Source: a virus (lineage: Duplodnaviria; Heunggongvirae; Uroviricota; Caudoviricetes). From it: a stretch of DNA of 64,000 nucleotides. Positions within the stretch are counted from its first letter, which is position 1, and each line of letters begins with the position of its first letter. Shown in pieces: positions 1 through 45,552 of this stretch. A program made the position numbers and the translations under genes. The notes beneath the pieces were generated by a model. The model saw nothing but the letters and a program-made list of their open reading frames with translations, was not told the DNA's origin and made no database searches. The stretch lies in the IMG/VR virus record IMGVR_UViG_3300020578_005505, one strand, 5' to 3'.

Positions 1-99
1 GAAGATCAACGATATCCTTTGAATGTAAGTGAGGAAAGTCTCCTCCGTCAATATGTATCCAATCGTTCCCGAAATCTCTTTTTCCGCAGCCTAAGTTTA
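1..99 (-). CDS. Partial CDS (N-terminus only; gene runs off the window start): class I SAM-dependent methyltransferase-like
   Basis: Minus-strand ATG at 99-97 then MLKINLGCGKRDFGNDWIHIDGGDF..., the Gly-rich LNLGCG motif I typical of SAM methyltransferases. Open to position 1. Confidence 0.4.
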
Positions 100-130
100 T
101 CTTTAACATTGAATATGAATATTATATTTC

Positions 131-754
131 TCACTTAAATTTAAATCCAGTTAATTTTTCTATTTTTTGAATATTAACTTTATTATTTTCTAATCCATCT
201 GCCTTAGTTGTATCATTATCAAATAAATAAGCTAACCATTCCTTTGTCTTTTTAACATAAATAACTTTCCAACATTGTTTAGGTACAGATACAGTTCCTA
301 TTTTTTTATCCTCACCTACTGAACCACACCATACTTTAGTTGAATCATTTTTTAAAGCTAGTTCACGAGTAAATGATTCTAATGTTTTCCAATCACCTCT
401 ATTTAAAGCTGGGTATTGAGCAGTCATATTACTAAAATAAAATGATTCATCATTAGCTACTTGATCACAAGCAGCATCAGCAGATGGAAAGTTATGTCCA
501 CGGTCAAATCCTTGTCCTGTATAACTTGATTGTAAATTAGTTTCATTAGCTAATTTAGGGTCAGAAATAAATTTATCACCACGTTTAGCTTTAGTATCAC
601 ATATTAACTTACTTTTAGTTAACCACCATTCTACTTTAACAGGATAGTGTTTTGATTTACTAAATGTAGTAGAATAAGCTTTATGATAAATTGTAATTGT
701 GTCTTGGGCAAAGACATTTGAAATAAGTAATAAAAATAATAATAATATTCTCAT
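131..754 (-). CDS. Secreted DNA/RNA non-specific endonuclease (Serratia nuclease/NUC1 family)
   Basis: N-terminal signal peptide MRILLLFLLLISNVFA and the DRGH active-site motif (FDRGHNFPSADAA). Confidence 0.7.
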   Translation of the reverse strand: MRILLLFLLLISNVFAQDTITIYHKAYSTTFSKSKHYPVKVEWWLTKSKLICDTKAKRGDKFISDPKLANETNLQSSYTGQGFDRGHNFPSADAACDQVANDESFYFSNMTAQYPALNRGDWKTLESFTRELALKNDSTKVWCGSVGEDKKIGTVSVPKQCWKVIYVKKTKEWLAYLFDNDTTKADGLENNKVNIQKIEKLTGFKFK

Positions 755-11106: not shown

Positions 11107-11204
11107 GAACAGGGGAAGGAATCGAACCTTCACGCCTTGCGGCAGACTTTCGTCTACGTCTAACCTTCGGCGGTCATATGCCCGCTCTTTTTCGCCACCC
11201 TGTT
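11107..11204 (-). tRNA. tRNA-like gene of unusual length (about 98 nt), possibly with a long variable arm; anticodon unresolved
   Basis: Minus strand. 5' AACAGGG pairs with 3' CCCTGTT. Canonical T arm GAAGG-TTCGATT-CCTTC. The interior holds two GNRA-capped hairpins (AGAC-GAAA-GTCT and GCC-GCAA-GGC) and a GCGG/CCGC hairpin around a CATATG palindrome. No standard cloverleaf could be folded by eye. Confidence 0.35.
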
Positions 11205-11206
11205 CG

Positions 11207-11280
11207 TTGACTCTACTGGAATCGAACCAGTCACCTACTGATTATGAGTCAGCCGCTCTCACCAACTGAGCTAAGAGTCA
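11207..11280 (-). tRNA. tRNA-Met (anticodon CAT; could be initiator, elongator or a lysidine-modified Ile)
   Basis: Full cloverleaf on the minus strand: acceptor TGACTCT/AGAGTCA, D stem GCTC/GAGC with 9-nt loop, anticodon stem GCTGA/TCAGT, loop CTCATAA, T arm ACTGG-TTCGATT-CCAGT, discriminator A. CCA not encoded. Confidence 0.8.
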
Positions 11281-11287
11281 GTATAAG

Positions 11288-11360
11288 GTGACTATACTGG
11301 AATCGAACCAGTGGCACGGCCTGATTTAGGGCTTGCTCTAACCTTCTGAGCTAATAGTCA
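11288..11360 (-). tRNA. tRNA with atypical anticodon arm (anticodon ambiguous; possible 8-nt loop CTAAATCA)
   Basis: Acceptor TGACTAT/ATAGTCA, D stem GCTC/GAGC, T arm ACTGG-TTCGATT-CCAGT are all canonical. The anticodon stem AGCCC/GGCCG pairs only 3 of 5, leaving 3 bp with an 8-nt loop, or a mismatched stem around loop TAAATCA. Confidence 0.45.
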
Positions 11361-11915: not shown

Positions 11916-12239
11916 TTATACTGCAAACGATTCTCCGCAACCGCAGGTTCTATTTGCATTTGGGTTTATAAATTGAAATCCTTTACCATTTAATCCATCA
12001 CTAAATTCTAATTCAGTGCCAAATAAATATAATAAAGATTTCATGTTAACTAAAATTTTTACGTTCTTATCTTCAAATAATTCATCACCTTGTTTTTTAT
12101 CCGTATCAAATTCTAATTCATAAGTTAAGCCTGAGCAGCCTCCACCTTTAACTCCAACACGAAGATATGGTTTATTGAATCCACTTTGATTTATTAATTC
12201 ATGGATTTTTTTACTTGCTGTTTCTGTTACTGTAATCAT
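11916..12239 (-). CDS. Iron-sulfur cluster insertion protein (IscA/HesB/ErpA family)
   Basis: GCSGLTYELEFD and a C-terminal CGCGESF motif, the hallmark of A-type Fe-S carriers. 107 aa. Confidence 0.75.
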   Translation of the reverse strand: MITVTETASKKIHELINQSGFNKPYLRVGVKGGGCSGLTYELEFDTDKKQGDELFEDKNVKILVNMKSLLYLFGTELEFSDGLNGKGFQFINPNANRTCGCGESFAV

Positions 12240-13098: not shown

Positions 13099-13269
13099 AA
13101 TACTTTATTTAACTATGTATCATTTTTGTTACCTTTTATAGGCCCGGTCTTTAATTTATTTGAAAAATTTCCTGTATATACACCAGTAGGTTGTACTACT
13201 ATAAAGGTGCTTAATGAAAAAGATATAGATGTAAGTAACGTTTTCATACTCTTTTACATCTATAAATAG

Positions 13270-13677
13270 TGGAGGAGACGGGAATCGAACCCGTGTATCC
13301 ATAAGGAACAATAACACCAGCGTATCACATGCTTAGATCTGCAAGCTGATCAGTAGTTGGGGCCACTAGTTTTGGTTAGCGTGCCTTCCACCACCTAATT
13401 TTACTCTAAACTAGGAAACTCACGGCTCGCAATATGCGTCCGGATGCCGTCTCTATAGCGTACGACTCGCTGCTGTTCTGTTGCGAGGCTATCAGCTGCC
13501 CCAAGCTTACTAAGCCGCGTATGCGTACTCTTCAGCACCTACAAATGCCACTAGGTCATCATAGGTCATTGTTGACATTTCGTCATTTATTGTTTGAAAA
13601 TTTGTTTAAAGGCGACATATCCAAACGCCTGCATGTAGTATTACCTTCACATTACGGAGCAATACCTGGACTCCCCC
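13270..13677 (-). ncRNA. ssrA: tmRNA (SsrA); predicted tag GAEEYAYAA followed by two stop codons
   Basis: Minus strand. 5' GGGGGAG pairs with 3' CTCCTCC including a G3-U70 wobble, plus discriminator A73, which are the alanine identity elements. T arm ACGGG-TTCGATT-CCCGT. Internal reading frame GGT GCT GAA GAG TAC GCA TAC GCG GCT TAG TAA encodes GAEEYAYAA, the same pattern as Bacteroidetes tags such as GENNYALAA. Confidence 0.8.
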
Positions 13678-13756
13678 ATATTATAAAGAACTAACTATAA
13701 AGCAAAAGATATTGATCCTGCGTAGCCTTAGCGGCTGATTATTAGATGAAATCTTT

Positions 13757-14647
13757 TTACTTTACCTTTAAGGTTGAAGCACTATCACCTGAACCTGGTT
13801 GTAGGTCAGCTGTAAATCCTATAAATGTACAAATGACTTGACCACCTTGACCTTGTCTATTTGTTTGAGACGTATTTATTTGTCCCCATTTATCAGAACA
13901 TTTTACAGGATAGGAAGGATTACTACATGCTGGAGGTGGTGAATACTGTCTGTATCCCCAATCACATTGGTAAGGGAATACACCAGGAATATTTACACAT
14001 TCAGCAAAAGTAGCACCGTTTGTTGAACCAACGAATGGCTTAAGTTTTCCTGTGTTATCTTTATATCCGAAATCCCAAAATGCTCCGAAATTTGGAGAAA
14101 GGACGGAATCTACTCTCGGACCGAATGAAGTTACGTTTTGTTGTAGTATGGAATGTAGTCCATCAACACATGTGATATCAAATGATTCGCCCGCACCTGT
14201 TAGCTCACCGTTTTGCCACCATGTATTTACCGTAAATTCGAAATTATTAATACCGAATGGATAACCTGCAGCTTGTGCAGCTGTACACGCTTGGTTTTGA
14301 ACTCCCCATGTAACGATAACACCAGTTAAAGCGGTTGTATCGCCTAAGTGATATTCAATACCTTTTTTAGCCCAAAAGTTACCAACATCTGATTGACTGT
14401 TGAACATGTTCGAAGAGTCCATACCAAATAGACCAACAATTGATTCTCCTGCTTGGAGGGTAACCCACACTTGAACTGAATCAAGTTGTGATTTGTTTAC
14501 TAACACGACATCAGTGTATTGTGTTGTATCTACTGTTGGTAATGGTTGAGGTGGAGTTGGAGTTGGTTGATTCCAATTCCATAAAATTGCTCCTGCTATG
14601 AGAGAACCAATTCCGAGTGCAATTAAAATTTTTGCAATTTTTTTCAT
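13757..14647 (-). CDS. Secreted or membrane-anchored Cys-rich protein of unknown function
   Basis: N-terminal hydrophobic anchor/signal, Pro/Thr-rich linker (PTPTPPQPLPT), then a domain with about 10 Cys. Confidence 0.4.
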   Translation of the reverse strand: MKKIAKILIALGIGSLIAGAILWNWNQPTPTPPQPLPTVDTTQYTDVVLVNKSQLDSVQVWVTLQAGESIVGLFGMDSSNMFNSQSDVGNFWAKKGIEYHLGDTTALTGVIVTWGVQNQACTAAQAAGYPFGINNFEFTVNTWWQNGELTGAGESFDITCVDGLHSILQQNVTSFGPRVDSVLSPNFGAFWDFGYKDNTGKLKPFVGSTNGATFAECVNIPGVFPYQCDWGYRQYSPPPACSNPSYPVKCSDKWGQINTSQTNRQGQGGQVICTFIGFTADLQPGSGDSASTLKVK

Positions 14648-14783
14648 GATTTTATTTTATTTTTATTTTATGTGTAATTATTAGTTATAAATATATAAAA
14701 TTAGACTAAAAAGTAAAGATAAGGCTTGTAAGGTGTCAAGGTATTACAAGAATATAGATGGTTGCTAGAGTTTACGATATAAT

Positions 14784-15035
14784 TTACCTGAATTGTGATA
14801 AAGCTTGTTTTAATTGCGATTTTGATATAACGCCGGAATTTCTATATAAAACACTTCCGTTGTTTTCAATCATTATAGTTGGAACACTTGTTACACCGTA
14901 CTTCATCGCCATATCTCTCTGCTGATCTACGTCTACATAAACTATGCCGATTTCAAGTTCCGAGCTTACTTCTTGGACTATTGGCTTAAACATTTTACAA
15001 GGTCCACACCAGGCTGCAGTAAAATAATATACCAT
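14784..15035 (-). CDS. Thioredoxin
   Basis: WCGPCK active site, 83 aa. Confidence 0.7.
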   Translation of the reverse strand: MVYYFTAAWCGPCKMFKPIVQEVSSELEIGIVYVDVDQQRDMAMKYGVTSVPTIMIENNGSVLYRNSGVISKSQLKQALSQFR

Positions 15036-16258: not shown

Positions 16259-17881
16259 TTAAATTTCTTCATCTTTTTTCTTATCGTCTTTTTTTTCGAA
16301 AATTACTGATTCTGTTGTTAGTATAGTACCTGCTACGGAGGCAGCATTTTCAAGAGCAGTACGTGTGACTTTAGTCGGATCAAGAAGACCTGCTTCAGTT
16401 GCCTCTACTACTTTTTGATTTTTAGCATCATAAGTGTGAGCTGATTCTTGACTTTCATAATTCTTAATTTCACTTAAAATACGGTAGTGATCTTCAATAC
16501 CACAGTTTGTTAAAATTACTTTGAAAGGAGCATGACAAGCTCTTTTAACTATATTCCAACCTTTTTGCTCATCGCTTGATGTTAAAGGTAATTTAATATT
16601 TTCGAATGCTGTAATTAATGCAAGTCCTCCACCAGGAACTACGCCTTCTACTAGAGCTGCTTTAGTAGCAAACAAAGCATCTTCTACCCTATCTTTCTTT
16701 TCTTTAATCTCAATATCGGAATTTCCTCCTACTGAAATAATAGCTACTCCGCCAACTAATTTACCAAGCCTCTCCTGAAGCTTTTCTTTCTCATAAAATG
16801 ATGTAGCTTTTTCAATTTGATCTTTTATCTCTTCAGCTCTTAAGCTTATAGCATCTATATTACCTTTGCCATCAACTATAGTAGTGGTTTCTTTAGATAC
16901 CGTAACAGTTCTTGCGACTCCGAAAAATTCCGTTAACTGTAACGGGGTTATTTTCTCTAGTTTATGTCCTTTATTTTTAGAAATTACCTGTCCCCCGGTT
17001 AAAATAGCTAGATCTTCTAAGATTAAAGTACGGCGTTCCCCAAAGTCAGGAGCTTTTACTCCTGCTACATAAACTATACCGCGCATTTTATTTACTATCA
17101 AAGTAGCAAGCGCTTCGTCTTCTATATCTTCAGCTACTATTAGTAAAGCTTTTTGATCGGAGTTGGCTTTAGTTAACGAATTTAAAATATCAGCAGCTTT
17201 AGTGATACGGCCATCGTAAATAAGAATATAAGGTTCATTCAAGACTGCATGCATTGTAGTATTATTAGTAACGAAGTATGGGGATTTGTATCCTCTATCA
17301 AACTGCATACCTTCTACTATCTCCAAAGCAGTTTCACCTGTTTTAGATTCTTCAATAGTAACAATACCTTCTCTTCCTACTTTTTCAATAGCAGCTGATA
17401 TTAGATTGCCTATCTCAATATCGTTATTTGCAGAGATAGCTGCTACTTGACGAATTTGATCTTGAGAGGAAATATCTTTCGATATTTTTTTTAAGTTATC
17501 GATAACTTCTTTTACGTAAACCTCAATAGCTTTCTTAACCTCTACTGGGTTAGATCCTTGATTAATAAGCTTTAATCCTTCTTCAACCATTGTTGTAGCA
17601 AGAAGAGTAGAGGTAGTAGTTCCGTCTCCTGCTTCATTAGCAGACTTTATGGATACCTGCTTTACTAGCTGGGCACCAAGGTCTTCAACCTGGTCTTCAA
17701 GTTCGTGAAAGGAACGAGCTACTGTAACTCCGTCTTTAGTTACTTTTACTTCGCCAGATTTTTCTTTAATTAACACTGTACGGCCTCCTGGCCCTAAAGT
17801 GGAAGTTACCGATTCATTTAATTTTTTAATACCCGCAAGTAACTTATTTTTTAATTCAATTCCAAATACTGTTGTTGTCAT
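16259..17881 (-). CDS. groEL: Chaperonin GroEL (Cpn60)
   Basis: Full-length GroEL homology, including a GGM-type C-terminal tail variant. The likely true start is [13 protein letters not shown] at 17881, one nucleotide after the GroES stop. The track ORF extends to 17926 through an in-frame upstream ATG. Confidence 0.9.
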
Positions 17882-17882
17882 T

Positions 17883-18254
17883 TTATGATACTTTACTGTT
17901 GTTGTATTTTTCAAAATCAGGATCAACTACTGTCTCTTTAAGAACTGATAAAACACTTAATTGTCCGCTTAATTTTGCGTAGACGTCTTGCTCTTTGCAA
18001 ATAAAATATTCTTCGCTTTCTACAGTGATTCTTAGAGAACCTAGTTTAGGGATAAGAACTTTGTCTCCTAATTCAAGATTTGAAAGTACTAGTTTATCAG
18101 AATTAAAATTATACGTAGCAGAGACAGCAATCACTTCTCCCATCTCAGGCCTCTCTTTTCCTAAATCTGGAATAACAATATTACCATACATTTGTTCCTC
18201 TTCTTCTATAGGTCTTAAAATTAAATACCCATTTAACGGTTGTAACTTCGACAT
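17883..18254 (-). CDS. groES: Co-chaperonin GroES (Cpn10)
   Basis: GroES-like N-terminus (LQPLNGYLILRPIEEEE...GNIVIPD...GEVIAV), directly upstream of groEL. Longer than usual at 123 aa. Confidence 0.65.
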   Translation of the reverse strand: MSKLQPLNGYLILRPIEEEEQMYGNIVIPDLGKERPEMGEVIAVSATYNFNSDKLVLSNLELGDKVLIPKLGSLRITVESEEYFICKEQDVYAKLSGQLSVLSVLKETVVDPDFEKYNNSKVS

Positions 18255-18488: not shown

Positions 18489-18926
18489 TTAATTCTCAAG
18501 AAAAGCTTTAGGTGTAGTAATAGAAATTTTTCGAGTAGCTTTACCTACAGCAATTGGTATATTTAAAGTCAAAAGACCTTTATCGAGAGATGCTTCAAGG
18601 TTACTTAAGTCGAACTTAGTTGAAATTTTCCAAGTAAGATCAAAACTTGATCTCTTAATACCCTTATAAATTGGATGATTTTCTTCCTGTTGTGCAGGTT
18701 TATCGTAACAAATTCTAAGAGAATCATTCTCAACAGAAATAAGAATATCCTCGACACTAAGGCCTACTGCGGCTATTTCAAAACGAATACCGCTTTTAGT
18801 TTCGAAAATATCAACAGGATGGGTTACTCTCTGCGTAATTGCAGAAAAATGTGCTTGTGCTTCTTTTAGGTCTTTCCATAGCAAGTCAAACGGATCGAGC
18901 TCGAACGCACGAAAAAGTGCTGTCAT
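18489..18926 (-). CDS. Small heat-shock protein (Hsp20/alpha-crystallin family)
   Basis: Alpha-crystallin domain pattern (DIFETKSGIRFEIAAVGLSVEDILISVENDSLRI...GLLTLNIP). Confidence 0.6.
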   Translation of the reverse strand: MTALFRAFELDPFDLLWKDLKEAQAHFSAITQRVTHPVDIFETKSGIRFEIAAVGLSVEDILISVENDSLRICYDKPAQQEENHPIYKGIKRSSFDLTWKISTKFDLSNLEASLDKGLLTLNIPIAVGKATRKISITTPKAFLEN

Positions 18927-23569: not shown

Positions 23570-24280
23570 TTATTTCCTAGGGTAACCTTTAATAAACTCA
23601 TAAAATTCAGCTCGTGCAGCATCTTCTACTAAAAAGCATCCTGATAGCTTAGAGGTCTTCATATTAGCACCTTGATGCTTTACACCTCTACAGCTTACAC
23701 AGTTATGAGTTGCTTCAATCATTACTGCAACACCAATATTATCTTCGCAAATTTTATCTACAGCATTATGAATAGCTACAGTTAATTGTTCTTGAATTGA
23801 ACCTCTTCTACTAAAATGCTCTACAATTCGGTTAAGTTTACTTAGACCTACTACCCTACTTTTAAGGGTCGGCACGTAAGCGATATGACACAGGCCGTTA
23901 ATAGTCTGATGATGGTGACTACACATACTCGTAATAGGGATACCTCCTTCAAATACTACTCCGTCATAACCGTCAGCCGGAAAGCTAGTCACAGAATCTA
24001 GCTGCTCATATCTACCTTTCCATAAGTCGTTTACGTAGGCCTTAGCCACTCTCATAGGAGTATTCGAGCTATTAGGGTCGTTTTCCCAGTCAACTCCTAA
24101 AGCAGTTAGAAAATTGCCGTAATGTAAAGAAGCAGCTTCAATAATAAGCTTCTTTTCACCTTCAGTTAAACAATTTCTTCCTTCTTTAATTGCGTCTCGC
24201 AAAAAAGTACTAATACCGTTAGCATGGCCAGCTTGTGCAAGCTCTAGTTTTTCAATTTTAATATGTTTATCTCTACTCAT
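23570..24280 (-). CDS. folE: GTP cyclohydrolase I (FolE)
   Basis: CSHHHQTINGLCHIAYVP...VGLSKLNRIVEHFSRRGSIQEQLT, the conserved FolE core with the Cys/His zinc ligands. Confidence 0.8.
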   Translation of the reverse strand: MSRDKHIKIEKLELAQAGHANGISTFLRDAIKEGRNCLTEGEKKLIIEAASLHYGNFLTALGVDWENDPNSSNTPMRVAKAYVNDLWKGRYEQLDSVTSFPADGYDGVVFEGGIPITSMCSHHHQTINGLCHIAYVPTLKSRVVGLSKLNRIVEHFSRRGSIQEQLTVAIHNAVDKICEDNIGVAVMIEATHNCVSCRGVKHQGANMKTSKLSGCFLVEDAARAEFYEFIKGYPRK

Positions 24281-24283
24281 AAT

Positions 24284-24793
24284 TCAAAGATATAAGGATA
24301 TCGATTTTAAACGTTCTTCTACTGTACCTTTTAATATAACTACTTTTTCTTTAGGAATATAATTTATCATAAATTCTCTTATAACTTGATCTATTTTTAA
24401 TTGCAATTCTTGACTTAAGCGATCAGGATCGGCTTCAAAATCAAACTCAACAGGTATATAAAAAAAACGTTCTACTTGATCTTTAGTTTCTTCAAATAGA
24501 GTAATAAGGTTTTCAATATCAAGATTAGGGGCTAAAATTTGGGAGTAAATAATACAATCAACAATACTTCGAGTACTAATTACATTTTTATGTGTTAAGT
24601 AATTTTGATAAGCCCAAGCAGATAGTTCATTTATTACGTATTGCTTTTCATAACCTGATAATTCCAGCTGCTTGCCTATCTTAATAACAGGTCTTGAGAA
24701 ACCATCAGTAACATAATACCCGGGATAATTAGTAGCAACCTCTTTAAGTAAGGTAGTTTTTCCGGTCCCGTGAGATCCAAGTAATATTTTCAT
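24284..24793 (-). CDS. P-loop NTPase (kinase/ATPase-like) of unknown role
   Basis: Walker A GSHGTGKTTLL at the N-terminus. 169 aa. Embedded in the deazaguanine gene run. Confidence 0.4.
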   Translation of the reverse strand: MKILLGSHGTGKTTLLKEVATNYPGYYVTDGFSRPVIKIGKQLELSGYEKQYVINELSAWAYQNYLTHKNVISTRSIVDCIIYSQILAPNLDIENLITLFEETKDQVERFFYIPVEFDFEADPDRLSQELQLKIDQVIREFMINYIPKEKVVILKGTVEERLKSISLYL

Positions 24794-24821
24794 TTAAATA
24801 TTTTATATAATATATGAATAT

Positions 24822-25388
24822 TTACTGAAAGGTCCAAGTATTCTTAAAAAATTCTACCCAAGTAAGAAGAGACGTAGTCCGTAAAATAGAATATGCTTCG
24901 TCTACAGTTTTTGCGGTATTTTCGATACTAGCTGTTATTATAACTTCCCCTGAATCTAATTCCGGAATTACTTCGTGAATTACTGAGCCGCAAACGGGGT
25001 ACTTTTCATGATTTTTAACAATATCTTCTTGTTTATTAAAGCCTTTTAATTCAGGATAGCGAGTAATGAGTGCAGGATGACCGTTATAAATTTTGCCTTT
25101 GTATTCACTAAAAAACCCAGTAGGTAATATTCTCAAAAATCCATGTAAAGTAATTAGCTTTTTTTCAAGTAGTTCAGGAAAAAGATAATCTTTTAATACA
25201 GGCTTAAACGGTATTGTCTTTATTGTTACACTATTTTCTCCAAAGAATCTCAGGTTATCATCAGATATCTTACTTAATCTATTAGTAACAAGGAGACTAG
25301 GGAGAAACCCGGTTTCTTTAGCTATAGCAATAATCTCGGATCCGGTCTGAGATATTAGTATTCCCCAGTTTTCTTGAACTTTTATCAT
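24822..25388 (-). CDS. PurN/Fmt-like formyltransferase (candidate preQ1-DNA formyltransferase, DpdN-like)
   Basis: NGHPALI resembles the NxHPSLLP motif. GSVIHEVIPELDSGEVIIT carries the catalytic His and Asp region of formyltransferases. Overlaps queF by ATGA. Confidence 0.55.
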   Translation of the reverse strand: MIKVQENWGILISQTGSEIIAIAKETGFLPSLLVTNRLSKISDDNLRFFGENSVTIKTIPFKPVLKDYLFPELLEKKLITLHGFLRILPTGFFSEYKGKIYNGHPALITRYPELKGFNKQEDIVKNHEKYPVCGSVIHEVIPELDSGEVIITASIENTAKTVDEAYSILRTTSLLTWVEFFKNTWTFQ

Positions 25389-26302
25389 TGCCCCATTGCT
25401 TTTGTACTAAACATTCTAACGTTATTTAAAACGCTATTAAGAAGTCTTTCGTTTGAAACACGTACTGGACAGATATCTAAAGAACCTCTACGGGCATATA
25501 ATAACATTACGCTACAGTCTTCTACGTTAGGGTTCGACATAATTTCAGTAAATAACTTCTCGGCACAGAATTCATGAAATTCGTTTACCTCGCGTAAGGA
25601 AATAACAAGCTTTAGCAGTTCTAATTTATTTACAACACCTTGCTTAGTTTTAATAGCAAAGTAAGCAGCTCCAGTATCTTTTTGCTTTGTATGTCGACAT
25701 CTAGATCTTAGAATATTAGTAAAGTACATATACATATTAGGACCACTACCTTCTTTAGTTACTACATTATACTTTCCTTGTCCTTTATAATCAGCAATTT
25801 CCATAGACTCTAATTCTTGGGAGTTTATTTCAGTAAACAAGTCACTATAACCACGGCCTGGATCTTGATTCAATCTAGTATCGTCTCCTGATCTAAAGAA
25901 GCCTACTCTCACTTCAGCTCCAATTGCTTTACTGATATCTTTTTTTACCTGTTTTTCGTAATTGTCGATAGCTTCTTCTAAAGTATCTCCCATCTTACAC
26001 ATATCAAAGGTATTCAAATAGAGTTTAAAAGATTTAGATTCTACCATGAATTCTGAATTTGCAGGGCAGATAACTTTTAAGGTACCTGCTACTGGAAGTC
26101 CATTGCTAAGTAGAAAAGTAGCTTCGTGACAATGCCAAGTATCAAAGCCTACAAATTCATCTCCTTTAATACCCCAATCTTGACGTGCAAGAATACGTGG
26201 CATAGGATTTAACTGTGAAGGATCAAATGTATCTGTATAAACAGCATAGGAATTAGCCGAACCAAGGGTTTTAGAGGCTACATCGGTCATATTACTTAAC
26301 AT
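25385..26302 (-). CDS. queF: NADPH-dependent 7-cyano-7-deazaguanine reductase (QueF, preQ0 to preQ1)
   Basis: VESKSFKLYLNTF, the QueF signature E(S/L)K(S/A)hK(L/Y)(Y/F/W). Confidence 0.7.
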   Translation of the reverse strand: MLSNMTDVASKTLGSANSYAVYTDTFDPSQLNPMPRILARQDWGIKGDEFVGFDTWHCHEATFLLSNGLPVAGTLKVICPANSEFMVESKSFKLYLNTFDMCKMGDTLEEAIDNYEKQVKKDISKAIGAEVRVGFFRSGDDTRLNQDPGRGYSDLFTEINSQELESMEIADYKGQGKYNVVTKEGSGPNMYMYFTNILRSRCRHTKQKDTGAAYFAIKTKQGVVNKLELLKLVISLREVNEFHEFCAEKLFTEIMSNPNVEDCSVMLLYARRGSLDICPVRVSNERLLNSVLNNVRMFSTKAMGQ

Positions 26303-27071
26303 AGGAGCGGAAGGTTTTTACGTTTTCGAAAATTAAATTTATTTGTTCTTCTTTTAGCTTAATATCTAAATTATCAGCTAATTTATCTTTTGGTTTAGAG
26401 GATGTAAGTCCGTTAGGTCCTAATCTATTACCGGACCAGCCGTTGACGATTGGTGAGCTAGTATCAAGAGAATAAATGTAGCGTTGCAAATGACTTTGAT
26501 TATACCTATAGAGTTGAAACTCTACAGGGTTTTGACATCCTAAAAGATGAAACCTATAGGAACCTCCAAAAAACTTATACCTACTGGCATACCACCAATT
26601 CAAAAACCTAAACCGTACAGTTACATGATCAGAATCAGGTACTAGATCGAAAGGCAAGGCAATAATATCAATATCTTTTTCAACATAAAAATCGATACAA
26701 TCAGCAATTTGCTCAAAAGTATCTCCTTGACATACCCCGATATACTTTAAATTATCGGATTTATATTTACCTAAGTACTCTACTGCATTTGCAATAGTTT
26801 GCCTGTAGTCGTTAACCTTATCAGGTAATACAAGGTGGCTAGGTCTAAATTCTTCTCCTAGTTCGTACAACTCTTCCCCGGATATTGATTGACCTAATTC
26901 AAATGCAGAATTATCGAGAATAGAATAAGAGGCTTCTTTAAGCTTCTTTTTATAAAACTCAGTATAACCTCTATCGTTATTTAGTAAATGCCCTAGTACA
27001 TAAGGGTAGTCACTGATTAGGTCATGATAAGGAAATAACTGTTTAGGTATTTCGTGACTTATTTTTGTCAT
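26292..27071 (-). CDS. Putative DpdA-like (tRNA-guanine transglycosylase-fold) DNA 7-deazaguanine transglycosylase
   Basis: 259 aa between queC and queF, with Asp-containing LDNSAFE and LDTSSP segments reminiscent of the TGT fold. Context-driven assignment. Confidence 0.4.
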   Translation of the reverse strand: MTKISHEIPKQLFPYHDLISDYPYVLGHLLNNDRGYTEFYKKKLKEASYSILDNSAFELGQSISGEELYELGEEFRPSHLVLPDKVNDYRQTIANAVEYLGKYKSDNLKYIGVCQGDTFEQIADCIDFYVEKDIDIIALPFDLVPDSDHVTVRFRFLNWWYASRYKFFGGSYRFHLLGCQNPVEFQLYRYNQSHLQRYIYSLDTSSPIVNGWSGNRLGPNGLTSSKPKDKLADNLDIKLKEEQINLIFENVKTFRSYVK

Positions 27072-27958
27072 ATGTTTACTTTTTTATGTTCTAATAATAC
27101 TTGCTCAACATGTGCTCTAGCTACTTCCCAACTTACAGGCCCGTTTTCATCAGCATATTCTACAGGATCGGGACGATCTAGTTTAATAAATGCTTCAATA
27201 CGTTCTACTGATGCAGCTGATTTATAATCTGAATACCATTTAAATGCGTAGGTCTCTGGACGGTAATAATGCTTAATTGGTTTATATGAAGTATTAGTAC
27301 GCTTGTATACTTCGTTAAAGTCTAAGCCTAATTCTTCACAGCAGTCTTCACCATCTACCAGGATATCGTACTTATTCATTTCAAGATAGGGAGTGTAGAC
27401 GCTGACTAACTCTGAATTCCAATTGCCGATTCTAAATGCTTCCATATCAGCGTCTCTAAATTCTTGACGGCAATCCGGATAGATGTCATGATCGCCCGCA
27501 TGCACACCTAATGCAATCATAACATTCTGTCCTATAGTGCAATCATCAGTTATTGGCCTGGTAGCAATAGATAAAGCTACTGCCTGTATAATTGAACTAA
27601 AGATCTTATTCCGGTTAGGAACTACTGTCTCTTTCATATTCTCTTGTTGATAGTGGCCCTCCGGTACATCTTGTCCGCCTTCAACTAATGCTGAATTAAG
27701 TAGTTCTTGTAATCCTTTTAATTTAATAGTTTGATGTGTTACAAAATAAGGATAATCTACTGTTTTAGATTCTTCGTCTACAACACAATATGAATTGATG
27801 TACTTTACTAATGATTGAGCACGCTCTAATTCAACACGATGTTTTTGTCCATAATCAAAAGATAGAGCTGTTACTTCGTAACCGTTAGCTAATAAATGAA
27901 GAAGTAATGACGAAGAATCCATCCCGCCACTAAGTGAAAGCACAACTTGTTTTTTCAT
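27068..27958 (-). CDS. queC: 7-cyano-7-deazaguanine synthase (QueC-like PP-loop ATPase)
   Basis: PP-loop VLSLSGGMDSSSLL (SGGxDS) at the N-terminus. Longer C-terminal region than the bacterial enzyme. Confidence 0.65.
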   Translation of the reverse strand: MKKQVVLSLSGGMDSSSLLLHLLANGYEVTALSFDYGQKHRVELERAQSLVKYINSYCVVDEESKTVDYPYFVTHQTIKLKGLQELLNSALVEGGQDVPEGHYQQENMKETVVPNRNKIFSSIIQAVALSIATRPITDDCTIGQNVMIALGVHAGDHDIYPDCRQEFRDADMEAFRIGNWNSELVSVYTPYLEMNKYDILVDGEDCCEELGLDFNEVYKRTNTSYKPIKHYYRPETYAFKWYSDYKSAASVERIEAFIKLDRPDPVEYADENGPVSWEVARAHVEQVLLEHKKVNI

Positions 27959-44256: not shown

Positions 44257-45552
44257 CTAAAAGTTATAGTTGTATCCTTTTTGTGCTTTAACCCTATATC
44301 CATCTTGTTCTAGCACTTCTTTTATTTGCTTTAGAAATCCTTTTCCGTCCTCAGTTGAATAGTCAACAAGAATTGAGTCGTAAACTATTAAAATTACTTT
44401 GCTTTTTTTACCTTTGAATAATATACGTAAATCATTTAGCTTTTTTACGTTATTAACAGTTTCTAGGCATTGAACATAGTAATTAAAAAGTTTTTGCGGG
44501 TTAGCATTCTCTATCTTTAATTTTCTTTTATTTGGTAGTTCTAAAAAACTATTTCTTTTATATTTTACCCATACTGCTTCTAGTAACTGATCAACCTTAA
44601 AAAACAACTCTATATTTTTATATTTCTCTTCGATTCCGTTATAGAGTTGCCTGAAGGTTATTTTCTTAGATTCTTGGTACTCTTCAGGTGATAGTTCTTG
44701 CTTTCCGAAGTATTGCTTACCTAGTATTACATGTATAGATTCGTCAGAGGGAAGCGGTACGTTTAACATGTTAGCTATTAACCTTATGTGATAACCATCA
44801 AAATCAAATTCAATTAAGATATCATTTTGAGGTATAAAACTTGCTCTAGAACCATTTTCTTTATTTAAAGCAAGAAAATTAATTCCATTAAAAGCATTAG
44901 TAGGTCTAGAAGTAATATTATAAAGGTTGTAGCTTGTATAGATTCTATTATCTTTAAAAGATCTAGCCTTCCATGTAGGTTCAAAAAACTTATCAAATAC
45001 CCGTTCATTTACTGTTATACCTTGTTCTTCTACCCATTTATAGGCTTCGACATACTCATTTTGCCATTTCTGATCGTTTTCAGATCCTACATAGCTCTTA
45101 ACTGTTTCAAATATAGATTCACTCTTTTCATAATGCTTTGAAATAGGTATAAGAGTATTTACTTGCTCTTTATATTTAAACTTATTATAAAAGTCAAGAT
45201 GTACGGGTGTATTAAATTGGAGATCTTTTATTTCTCCTGCTTTATCTAGGATATTAAAATACAGATCTATTCCTTGCGGAATATGAAAAAAATAAGAATG
45301 CCATTTTTTATCTAGTAAATATACTTTTTTAATATCAAAAATTAAATTTTGTATATCGTCAAGACTTAAGGAAAACCCTTCAGAATGGTTTATAGGAAAA
45401 ATGTATCCTTTTTTAAAATCGTTATAATACAGGACGCATGGAGATGTTAGTAGTGGGTGGGTTTCTTCGGAAAGTGAAACTAGATCTATAAAACATTGAT
45501 TTGTTTTTGGAAGATGTTTTAATTGTTCTATAGTTTCGACTATATAGTACAT
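44257..45552 (-). CDS. Hypothetical replication-module protein
   Basis: 431 aa. No confident motif. FDFDGYHIR is only vaguely primase-like. Confidence 0.3.
   Translation of the reverse strand: MYYIVETIEQLKHLPKTNQCFIDLVSLSEETHPLLTSPCVLYYNDFKKGYIFPINHSEGFSLSLDDIQNLIFDIKKVYLLDKKWHSYFFHIPQGIDLYFNILDKAGEIKDLQFNTPVHLDFYNKFKYKEQVNTLIPISKHYEKSESIFETVKSYVGSENDQKWQNEYVEAYKWVEEQGITVNERVFDKFFEPTWKARSFKDNRIYTSYNLYNITSRPTNAFNGINFLALNKENGSRASFIPQNDILIEFDFDGYHIRLIANMLNVPLPSDESIHVILGKQYFGKQELSPEEYQESKKITFRQLYNGIEEKYKNIELFFKVDQLLEAVWVKYKRNSFLELPNKRKLKIENANPQKLFNYYVQCLETVNNVKKLNDLRILFKGKKSKVILIVYDSILVDYSTEDGKGFLKQIKEVLEQDGYRVKAQKGYNYNF

Follow-up and report, generated by a model that had tools for sequence, protein, structure and literature searches.

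The 64,000-nucleotide stretch of DNA analysed here (the window; one strand of the IMG/VR virus record IMGVR_UViG_3300020578_005505, Caudoviricetes) carries a gene for transfer-messenger RNA (tmRNA, gene ssrA), and the locus raises the question of what tag that RNA encodes. An earlier note, made from the letters of the sequence, had described a tmRNA with alanine identity elements and a divergent tag, GAEEYAYAA. The gene held up under closer analysis, whereas the tag had to be revised: the locus very probably holds a functional phage tmRNA whose tag is a 24-residue frame. In its most likely form, DEMSTMTYDDLVAFVGAEEYAYAA, this tag has two host-like codons, then a 15-codon insert and then a host-like Y-A-x-A-A end. 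The letters GAEEYAYAA are indeed present, as the C-terminal third of the tag, but the tag is not nine residues long, as comparative data put the resume codon 15 codons upstream of them.

The gene itself was called by ARAGORN as a one-piece tmRNA of 409 nucleotides (nt) at 13269-13677 on the minus strand (the strand had been left unstated before), one of three genes that the program found in the window. A covariance check with Rfam RF00023 gave a match at 13267-13677 (minus strand) of 56.2 bits, compared with a gathering score of 47 (E 2.4e-19), over model positions 1-374 of 374, so that the molecule is full-length; tmRNAs of relatives scored 59-66 bits. The 5′ end, GGGGGAG, and the 3′ end, CUCCUCC-A-CUA, form a 7-base-pair acceptor stem with G3:U70 and the discriminator A73, the alanine identity set that had been proposed, and the T arm is canonical, as had also been claimed. 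The elements of the tRNA-like part and the first pseudoknot are as follows.

13671..13677, minus strand: acceptor stem 5′ strand GGGGGAG, which carries G3 of G3:U70 (from the sequence)
13270..13277, minus strand: acceptor stem 3′ strand CUCCUCC (13271-13277) and discriminator A73 (13270) (from the sequence)
13278..13294, minus strand: T arm ACGGG UUCGAUU CCCGU (Rfam alignment)
13593..13629, minus strand: pseudoknot 1 (read from the sequence)

In pseudoknot 1, stem 1 (GGCG/CGCC) would pair RNA nt 49-52 with 64-67, and stem 2 (UUUGGA/UUCAAA) would pair nt 53-58 with 80-85. CCA is not encoded in the window tmRNA, where CUA follows A73; it is encoded in about half of the relatives. Judged by its sequence, the window tmRNA has the features for alanine charging and tmRNA folding. 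A permuted two-piece arrangement was considered and rejected, since ARAGORN and RF00023 both gave a collinear, one-piece order, and an 86-amino-acid (aa) open reading frame (ORF) on the plus strand at 13434-13694, antisense to the tmRNA, was taken as spurious.

Relatives were collected by pattern scans anchored on the tag end (IMG/VR), on a conserved stretch after pseudoknot 1 (IMG/VR and metagenomes) and on a helix 2 stretch outside the tag (IMG/VR). The scans yielded 61 and then 87 tmRNAs, 148 with that of the window, of which 123 were unique (again with the window). The helix 2-anchored scan is independent of the tag, and it still returned long tags exclusively. The contigs that carry these genes come from uncultured phages and share GroEL, glycosyltransferases, a nuclease and structural genes with the window, which indicates that the carriers of the long-tag tmRNA are one broad clade of related phages. 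Acceptor stems differ among relatives (GGGGATG/CATCTCC, GGGGGTA/TACCTCC, GGGCCTA/TAGGTCC, GGGGCAT/ATGCTCC, among others), yet they always pair and always keep G3:U and A73. Many compensatory changes were seen in helix 2 and the T arm; in a set of 55 relatives, 100% of cells in the T arm were paired and 4 of its 5 pairs covaried, and for stem 1 of pseudoknot 1 the values were 81.8% paired with 3 of 4 pairs changed on both sides. This conservation is far beyond chance. Selection maintains the tag frame and, among the structural parts, stem 1 of pseudoknot 1, helix 2 and the tRNA-like domain, which marks the family as a working RNA and no relic.

The coding part of the molecule was resolved into the following features.

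13513..13584, minus strand: tag reading frame, 24 codons, DEMSTMTYDDLVAFVGAEEYAYAA (frame openness, codon periodicity and in-frame indels in relatives)
13582..13584, minus strand: proposed resume codon GAC (Asp), RNA nt 94-96, preceded by ACAAUAAAU (position and context match GENNYALAA tmRNAs)
13534..13578, minus strand: 45-nt, 15-codon in-frame insert relative to short-tag tmRNAs, encoding MSTMTYDDLVAFVGA (alignment with five GENNYALAA tmRNAs)
13538..13565, minus strand: conserved hairpin within the insert, codons 7-16 (RNAalifold and pair counts in relatives)
13513..13539, minus strand: C-terminal, host-like degron module GAEEYAYAA (from the sequence; resembles GETNYALAA and GENNYALAA)
13507..13512, minus strand: double stop UAG UAA (from the sequence and ARAGORN)

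On the minus strand the 3′ part of the tag reads GGU GCU GAA GAG UAC GCA UAC GCG GCU UAG UAA, that is GAEEYAYAA followed by two stops, so the internal frame and the double stop had been read correctly. The place at which translation resumes was determined from the relatives, in most of which the ARAGORN tag itself begins at the GAC position and is of the DEMSTMTF.DLMAFVGADYAVAA type; odd calls in some others (VNKPEHYLSAP at nt 206) became DVELSTWNFEDAMAFVGAYDYAVAA on inspection. When the tag frame was anchored across the family, 10 of the 123 unique sequences could not be anchored; the other 113 were analysed. From GAC to the stop the tag frame was interrupted in none of these 113, whereas frame +1 contained stops in all of them and frame +2 in 75. 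Summed entropy at codon positions 1, 2 and 3 was 5.6, 3.2 and 13.0. Synonymous spread was evident (Leu as CTT, CTA or TTA; Ser as TCN or AGT), and one position was always bulky and hydrophobic although its codon was ATG, TGG, TTC or TAC. The resume anchor and the F-V-G codons were 39 nt apart in 94 sequences, 42 nt in 16 and 45 nt in 2, one further sequence having been mis-anchored by the pattern, and the indels downstream in the tag region were exclusively of 3 or 6 nt. Resume codons of tmRNAs are expected to be G-initial, and the proposed ones were G-initial in all relatives, giving the N-termini D, A and V.

Comparison with tmRNAs carrying the tag GENNYALAA, fetched from IMG/VR, placed the start at the same point. 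In those, the resume codon lies at gene nt 95-98 after aacaattaact, and when five of them were aligned with the phage tmRNAs the short-tag sequence ...AACU|GGCGAAA lined up with the phage ...AAAU|GACGAAA, the sole large difference being one gap of 45 columns in the short-tag sequences. The GAC codon lies 8 nt past pseudoknot 1, whereas the possible starts of a short tag (nt 139 or 142) lie 50 nt past it. We therefore take GAC as the probable resume codon, because of the ARAGORN calls in relatives, the open frame, the codon-like variation, the in-frame indels, the G-initial codons and the match in context to GENNYALAA tmRNAs. One could also suppose that the conserved frame encodes a small protein, MSTMTYDD..., translated from an internal AUG independently of trans-translation, as the third codon of the window's frame is AUG and the region upstream is A-rich. 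However, an AUG is missing at this place in the relatives that read DVELSTW..., AEELSSF... or VELSTM..., and these keep both the frame and the peptide pattern, which makes this idea extremely improbable.

The insert is the part of the tag that sets the family apart, and its peptide pattern, E-[LM]-S-x-[MWFY]-T-F-[DE]-[DS]-[LAVM]-M-[AS]-F-[VI]-G, is kept in relatives. RNAalifold, run on the conserved parts, predicted a hairpin in which codons 7-10 pair with codons 12-16; across 55 unique sequences 96.8% of its cells were paired and 5 of its 8 pairs were changed on both sides. Codon 8 position 3 and codon 15 position 1, for example, were C-G in 43 sequences, U-A in 8 and U-G in 4; codon 9 position 3 and codon 13 position 3 were U-A in 18, C-G in 16 and A-U in 11; and codon 10 position 1 and codon 13 position 2 were G-C in 42 and U-A in 10. 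Owing to this covariation some amino-acid changes are coupled through the RNA (D10S with A13E/D; V15I with a silent change in F8). These patterns indicate that the insert is constrained twice, as a peptide and as an RNA hairpin. The peptide MSTMTFDDLMAFVGA was named as a bait for candidate partners of the tag.

Several observations weigh against the 24-residue frame and the functional molecule proposed here. ARAGORN's own tag for the window copy is the short AEEYAYAA, which starts one codon after GAEEYAYAA, and the program gives short tags for about one third of the relatives. The sequence ahead of AEEYAYAA, GUAGGU|GCU, also resembles a resume context, with U at -5 and A at -4, like the resume context of E. 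coli. The insert is a well-supported RNA hairpin, so that part of its conservation is at the RNA level, and the first seven tag codons are near-invariant even at third positions, which points to a constraint on the RNA there too. Elsewhere in the molecule, stem 2 of pseudoknot 1 was only 41.9% paired, with indels putting the alignment out of register, and the pseudoknot 2-4 region had low posterior probability in the Rfam alignment; across relatives this region is very variable, with large indels and lengths of about 100 to 300 nt. Finally, the host is assigned to the Bacteroidota indirectly, from promoter-like boxes, from the relationship to Flavobacterium phage immuto and from the tag ends.

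The first of these points could mean that the short tag is correct, with translation resuming at GGU or GCU after the hairpin and the 45-nt insert serving as an untranslated, structured spacer, for which the covarying hairpin is the main argument. Against this, apart from the frame being open throughout, the period-3 variation persists at unpaired positions outside the hairpin (mean entropy 0.32, 0.18 and 0.74 at codon positions 1, 2 and 3), insertions and deletions here always add or remove a multiple of 3 nt, and amino-acid replacements are conservative and arise through unrelated codons. Moreover, 7 unique sequences have AUY in place of GUA before GGN, with loss of the UA context, whereas the canonical resume context and its distance are kept upstream. 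Since the codon periodicity is also seen away from the stem and no sequence interrupts the frame, we consider a spacer improbable. A peptide containing ...DEMSTMTYDDLVAF... would be expected from the 24-residue tag and is incompatible with the short one.

A compromise would be that both sites are used, one RNA giving a long and a short tag in a ratio set by the hairpin, and there are indeed two resume-like contexts in the same frame with a stable, conserved hairpin between them. However, the second context is not conserved in all relatives and nothing in the data requires two sites; we know of no tmRNA that uses two resume sites, and regard this arrangement as very improbable.

We also weighed two explanations in which the gene does not act in tagging. 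The first is that it is a passenger, a copy of a host ssrA or a remnant of an attachment site without a role of its own, since ssrA is a common integration site and fragments of it occur in prophages (PMC9004378). Against this, the match spans the full model and is no fragment, and at least 123 variants retain the gene, with compensatory changes among them. A pattern coding for DEMSTMT gave 48 chance matches inside proteins and no tmRNA in 185,579 bacterial and archaeal species genomes (one each; variant N-termini fall outside the pattern), and no integrase was found among the window ORFs scanned against PHROGs or Pfam. We judge a mere passenger to be extremely improbable. The second is that the RNA is a decoy that soaks up host SmpB or AlaRS and so inhibits host trans-translation. 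With a query verified as SmpB, no homologue was found either in the window translated in all six frames or in related loci totalling 1.84 Mb, and a molecule consisting of the tRNA-like domain only, from mycobacteriophage DS6A, has been reported to inhibit tmRNA (PMC4131195). A tRNA-like domain alone would suffice for this purpose, though, and this RNA has been retained at full length with its tag frame under coding-type selection, so that a decoy seems most unlikely.

How the phage tag relates to known tags can be judged from both its ends. The pattern G-x-x-x-Y-A-x-A-A does resemble Bacteroidetes-type tags, such as GETNYALAA of Bacteroides and that of GENNYALAA tmRNAs, as the earlier note had observed. 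The weight it put on YAYAA in place of YALAA, with a possible effect on recognition by ClpXP or SspB, was misplaced: the C-terminus varies freely among relatives (YAVAA, YALAA, YAYAA, LAVAA, ATFA), and it is the insert that is conserved and unusual. SspB, moreover, is a proteobacterial adaptor. With the one-piece tmRNAs of the Bacteroidota (GENNYALAA/GETNYALAA) the window tmRNA shares its architecture, the resume position (nt 94 vs 95-98), an A-rich context and the Y-A-x-A-A-like end. It differs from them in having the 45-nt insert with its hairpin, in having 24 codons and not 9, in being phage-borne with no SmpB gene alongside and in the great variability of the pseudoknot 2-4 region among the phage relatives.

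Other long tags were compared in the same way. Mycobacteriophage Bxz1 (cluster C) also has a full-length one-piece tmRNA in a large lytic myovirus, and its 25-residue tag ATDTDATVTDAEIEAFFAEEAAALV (ARAGORN) has the same layout: it begins acidic and rich in Thr, has a hydrophobic x-A-F-x patch some 10 residues before its end and then reads AEE; its host belongs to another phylum, there is no detectable nucleotide similarity and its C-terminus is ALV, not AA. Against shuffled sequences the similarity of the Bxz1 and window tags was marginal (p 0.05-0.15), and it is a shared layout that we claim, not homology. Cellulophaga phage phi38:1, which has a marine flavobacterium as host, likewise encodes GroEL and GroES and has, as called by ARAGORN, a 22-residue tag, AQIEANMEAVNAILNLEVAVGV; unlike the window it has a podovirus-like genome, and its tag is unrelated in sequence and ends in VGV. 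Among bacteria, the 27-residue tag of Mesoplasma florum/Mycoplasma, AANKNEENTNEVPTFMLNAGQANYAFA, is read by Lon, and its lengthening accompanies recognition by Lon instead of ClpXP. The order of a polar-acidic start, an internal hydrophobic-aromatic patch, a small linker and Y-A-x-A is common to that tag and to the phage one, a resemblance of architecture alone. The Mesoplasma tag comes from a bacterial chromosomal gene in a lineage without ClpXP, and the sequence similarity is marginal (p ~0.03). Homology of the insert to the tags of Bxz1, phi38:1 or Mesoplasma could not be demonstrated (p 0.02-0.9 against shuffles), and the resemblance is treated as architectural. The tmRNA genes lie at 26805-27164 (minus strand) in phi38:1 (NC_021796; L338) and at 59-493 (plus strand) in the Bxz1 record (AY129337; L300), and both are unannotated in the feature tables of those record stretches.

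The two-piece tmRNAs of marine phages (Melnitz, pelagimyophages, cyanophages) provide another case of phage-borne ssrA, for which the proposed roles are upkeep of the hijacked translation machinery or recycling of the host's protein (PMC9004378). Those are circularly permuted and some are under a glutamine riboswitch, whereas the window's is in one piece, and an Rfam scan found no riboswitch in the window. A phage tmRNA is thus uncommon, as the earlier note had it, though not novel: tmRNA genes were found in 402 of 18,146 phage genomes (PMC9004378), and they are established in Bxz1-group mycobacteriophages and Bacillus phage G (PMC4131195) and in huge phages (PMC7162821). In a curated tmRNA database, which took its viruses from RefSeq, the commonest tag length is 10 (PMC11915505). 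In the searchable literature we found neither the present tmRNA family nor its insert described, and no account of long tags as a trait of phage tmRNAs. Phage tmRNAs and long tags (Bxz1, phi38:1) were already known; what is new is this family with its conserved insert.

Searches of cultured phages were negative: blastn of the window tmRNA against 50,697 GenBank phage records gave no match, and neither did tblastn of the tag peptide against the same records, a search in which queries of 23-25 residues are insensitive, the Bxz1 tag having been missed in Bxz1 itself.

As no SmpB is encoded, the tmRNA would need host factors. Host RNase P and the host CCA-adding enzyme would mature the tmRNA, host AlaRS would charge it, and host SmpB and EF-Tu would bring it to those ribosomes of the infected cell that have stalled on broken mRNAs. 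The stalled protein would gain Ala and the 24-residue tag and then be released. The hairpin probably keeps the lengthened coding region compact, such that pseudoknot 1 and helix 5 remain at a distance that permits loading into the mRNA channel. The C-terminal YA-x-AA module would be the usual ClpXP-type degron; the Bacteroides tag GETNYALAA strongly destabilises GFP. The phage would be likely to benefit from ribosomes being freed and amino acids recycled during the destruction of host RNA, and ribosome rescue during phage takeover, which had been suggested from the start, is plausible.

The acidic-then-hydrophobic patch that the insert encodes may be a second recognition element for a protease or adaptor, a suggestion that we make tentatively and at somewhat worse than even odds, because the Mesoplasma long tag goes with recognition by Lon and the insert has a comparable layout. 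The marginal similarity of the insert to the Bxz1 and Mesoplasma tags against shuffles (p 0.02-0.15) counts against it. If it holds, proteins tagged by the phage would form a distinct class that is more efficiently cleared or re-routed. Broader, and a little more doubtful again, is the idea that phage tmRNAs form a functional class of their own, in which the host's short degron is not copied and a lengthened tag with a conserved acidic-hydrophobic insert is recognised by something else. Candidates for this partner are Lon, some other protease or adaptor of the host, a protein of the phage or even the chaperonin that the phage encodes nearby, and the phage would then re-route or selectively clear the proteins from stalled ribosomes, rewiring the output of host rescue; that tags of 22-27 residues recur in this family, in Bxz1 and in phi38:1, which are unrelated groups of phages, would represent convergence on one strategy.

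Some consequences do not depend on these ideas. The automatic annotation is corrected, as ARAGORN truncates the tag in about one third of the family and misplaces it in others, and surveys of phage tags that rely on ARAGORN starts would miss the long-tag feature. A large, phage-restricted tmRNA lineage is also defined, whose insert offers a compact natural case of overlapping constraints on peptide and RNA. Were the insert a second recognition signal, it would illustrate the editing, by a virus, of the label that its host uses in protein quality control. Bacteroidota, for which few such tools exist, would gain an orthogonal degradation tag, and the question of why lytic phages carry tmRNA would become directly testable.

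As had been proposed, the tmRNA lies on a phage. All sizeable ORFs in the window are on the minus strand, the G+C content is about 34%, and the ORFs include a tail sheath, a tape-measure-like protein, DNA polymerase A, a DnaB-like helicase, ribonucleotide reductase, a UvsX-like recombinase and glycosyltransferases. Among cultured phages the closest relative is the 160-kb myovirus vB_FspM_immuto of Flavobacterium, whose DNA polymerase is 55% identical, and the gene order polymerase, GroES, GroEL, nuclease, glycosyltransferases is common to both; the window is a myovirus distantly related to immuto. The tmRNA is absent from the syntenic 42 kb of immuto that were examined. In the window it lies just downstream of genes for Hsp20, GroES, GroEL, a phosphoesterase and thioredoxin, and the neighbours of interest are listed below.

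18489-18926, minus strand: Hsp20 (Pfam HSP20)
17883-18254, minus strand: GroES (Pfam Cpn10)
16259-17926, minus strand: GroEL (PHROG 5725, 3e-145)
14784..15035, minus strand: thioredoxin (Pfam PF00085, 7e-20)
13757..14647, minus strand: upstream ORF of 296 aa with no family match (ORF list and family scans)
11916-12239, minus strand: IscA-like Fe-S protein (a side observation)
131-754, minus strand: DNA/RNA non-specific endonuclease (Pfam Endonuclease_NS, 2e-41)

Among relatives with the gene in question in the fetched flank, thioredoxin was within 1 kb of the tmRNA in 16 of 24, GroEL within 3 kb in 10 of 11, and a homologue of Endonuclease_NS within 3 kb in 14 of 17. The endonuclease at 131-754 is, on this circumstantial basis, a possible source of the broken mRNAs handled by the tmRNA. 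Recurrent neighbours in relatives were thioredoxin, small unknown proteins, the nuclease and chaperonins; a conserved protein partner beside the tmRNA was not found, as the window's own neighbours (296 and 285 aa, no family) are not conserved ones, and the 296-aa ORF has no homologue in the related loci. Hsp20, GroES, GroEL, thioredoxin and the IscA-like protein around the tmRNA resemble a protein-homeostasis cluster. In one sub-clade (L018, L028, L030, L076, L100, L103 and about 20 more loci) the tmRNA lies about 65 nt from a homologue of the window ORF 44257-45552, at the boundary of the replication and structural modules and outside the chaperonin region, from which it appears that the gene has moved within these genomes.

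Upstream of the gene, 110 loci were compared. Two elements flank the window tmRNA.

13678..13692, minus strand: 5′ leader AGUUCUUUAUAAUAU (also written AGTTCTTTATAATAT), a variant of AGTTCTTTAAAATAT (upstream comparison of the 110 loci)
13224..13264, minus strand: AU-rich hairpin followed by CUUUUUC, terminator-like, just 3′ of the tmRNA (fold -11 kcal/mol, z -2.4)

The leader AGTTCTTTAAAATAT stands directly before G1 of the tmRNA in most relatives (about 60 related loci), and in several loci it is at the same time the end of an upstream ORF (final codons and stop, ..EVL*); it may be a processing site or a promoter element. Many relatives also have a TTTG ... TATATTT(A/G) pair of boxes upstream of the tmRNA, which we take to resemble the -33/-7 promoter type of the Bacteroidota. 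The window tmRNA has no such box of its own, and the nearest, TATATTTA at 14695, lies ahead of the ORF 13757-14647; co-transcription with that ORF followed by processing is therefore likely. A fixed-spacing pattern for Bacteroidota promoters gave 1 match in the window against 0.38 expected, which is uninformative, a sigma-70 and terminator scan around the tmRNA gene gave nothing meaningful, and the terminator-like element at 13224..13264 was not called by a G+C-based scan.

Some further observations concern the relatives and the rest of the window. A second tag sub-family, VKSQSERVEEGASIIAMAFASELALAA, ADKTSRQEIGASIINMAFANAPVALAA and ATRQERIAEGEAILASIFNEEFALAA, of 26-27 residues, occurs on tmRNAs with the helix 2 signature (L203, L204, L209, L214, L222, L236, L258, L267); it starts differently, but here too a hydrophobic patch, x-M/S-A/I-F, lies about 9-10 residues before the end. 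An insertion of about 90 nt, TACTCTGATACTGACAGCTCTTTAGGAGTGATGGGTGTGAAAGCAGAGTA..., with no Rfam match, is present in the pseudoknot region of some relatives' tmRNAs (L066:1686-2127, L123:7178-7619, L127:126-603, L131:806-1267); a copy lies outside the gene, just 3′ of the tmRNA, in L257, and the insertion may be a small mobile or structured element. Genes for 7-deazaguanine (queuosine precursor) synthesis, FolE, QueF and QueC, at 23570-27958 on the minus strand, as in immuto, suggest that the DNA is modified. A tRNA-like paralogue at 11288-11360 (minus strand) adjoins tRNA-Met at 11207-11280 (minus strand) and has an abnormal, shortened anticodon arm; ARAGORN gave it a 4-base anticodon, aaat, and the Rfam tRNA model scored 40.6 bits in a local search and missed it in the whole-window search. 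A third, weaker tRNA-like stretch lies at 11107-11204 (23.8 bits).

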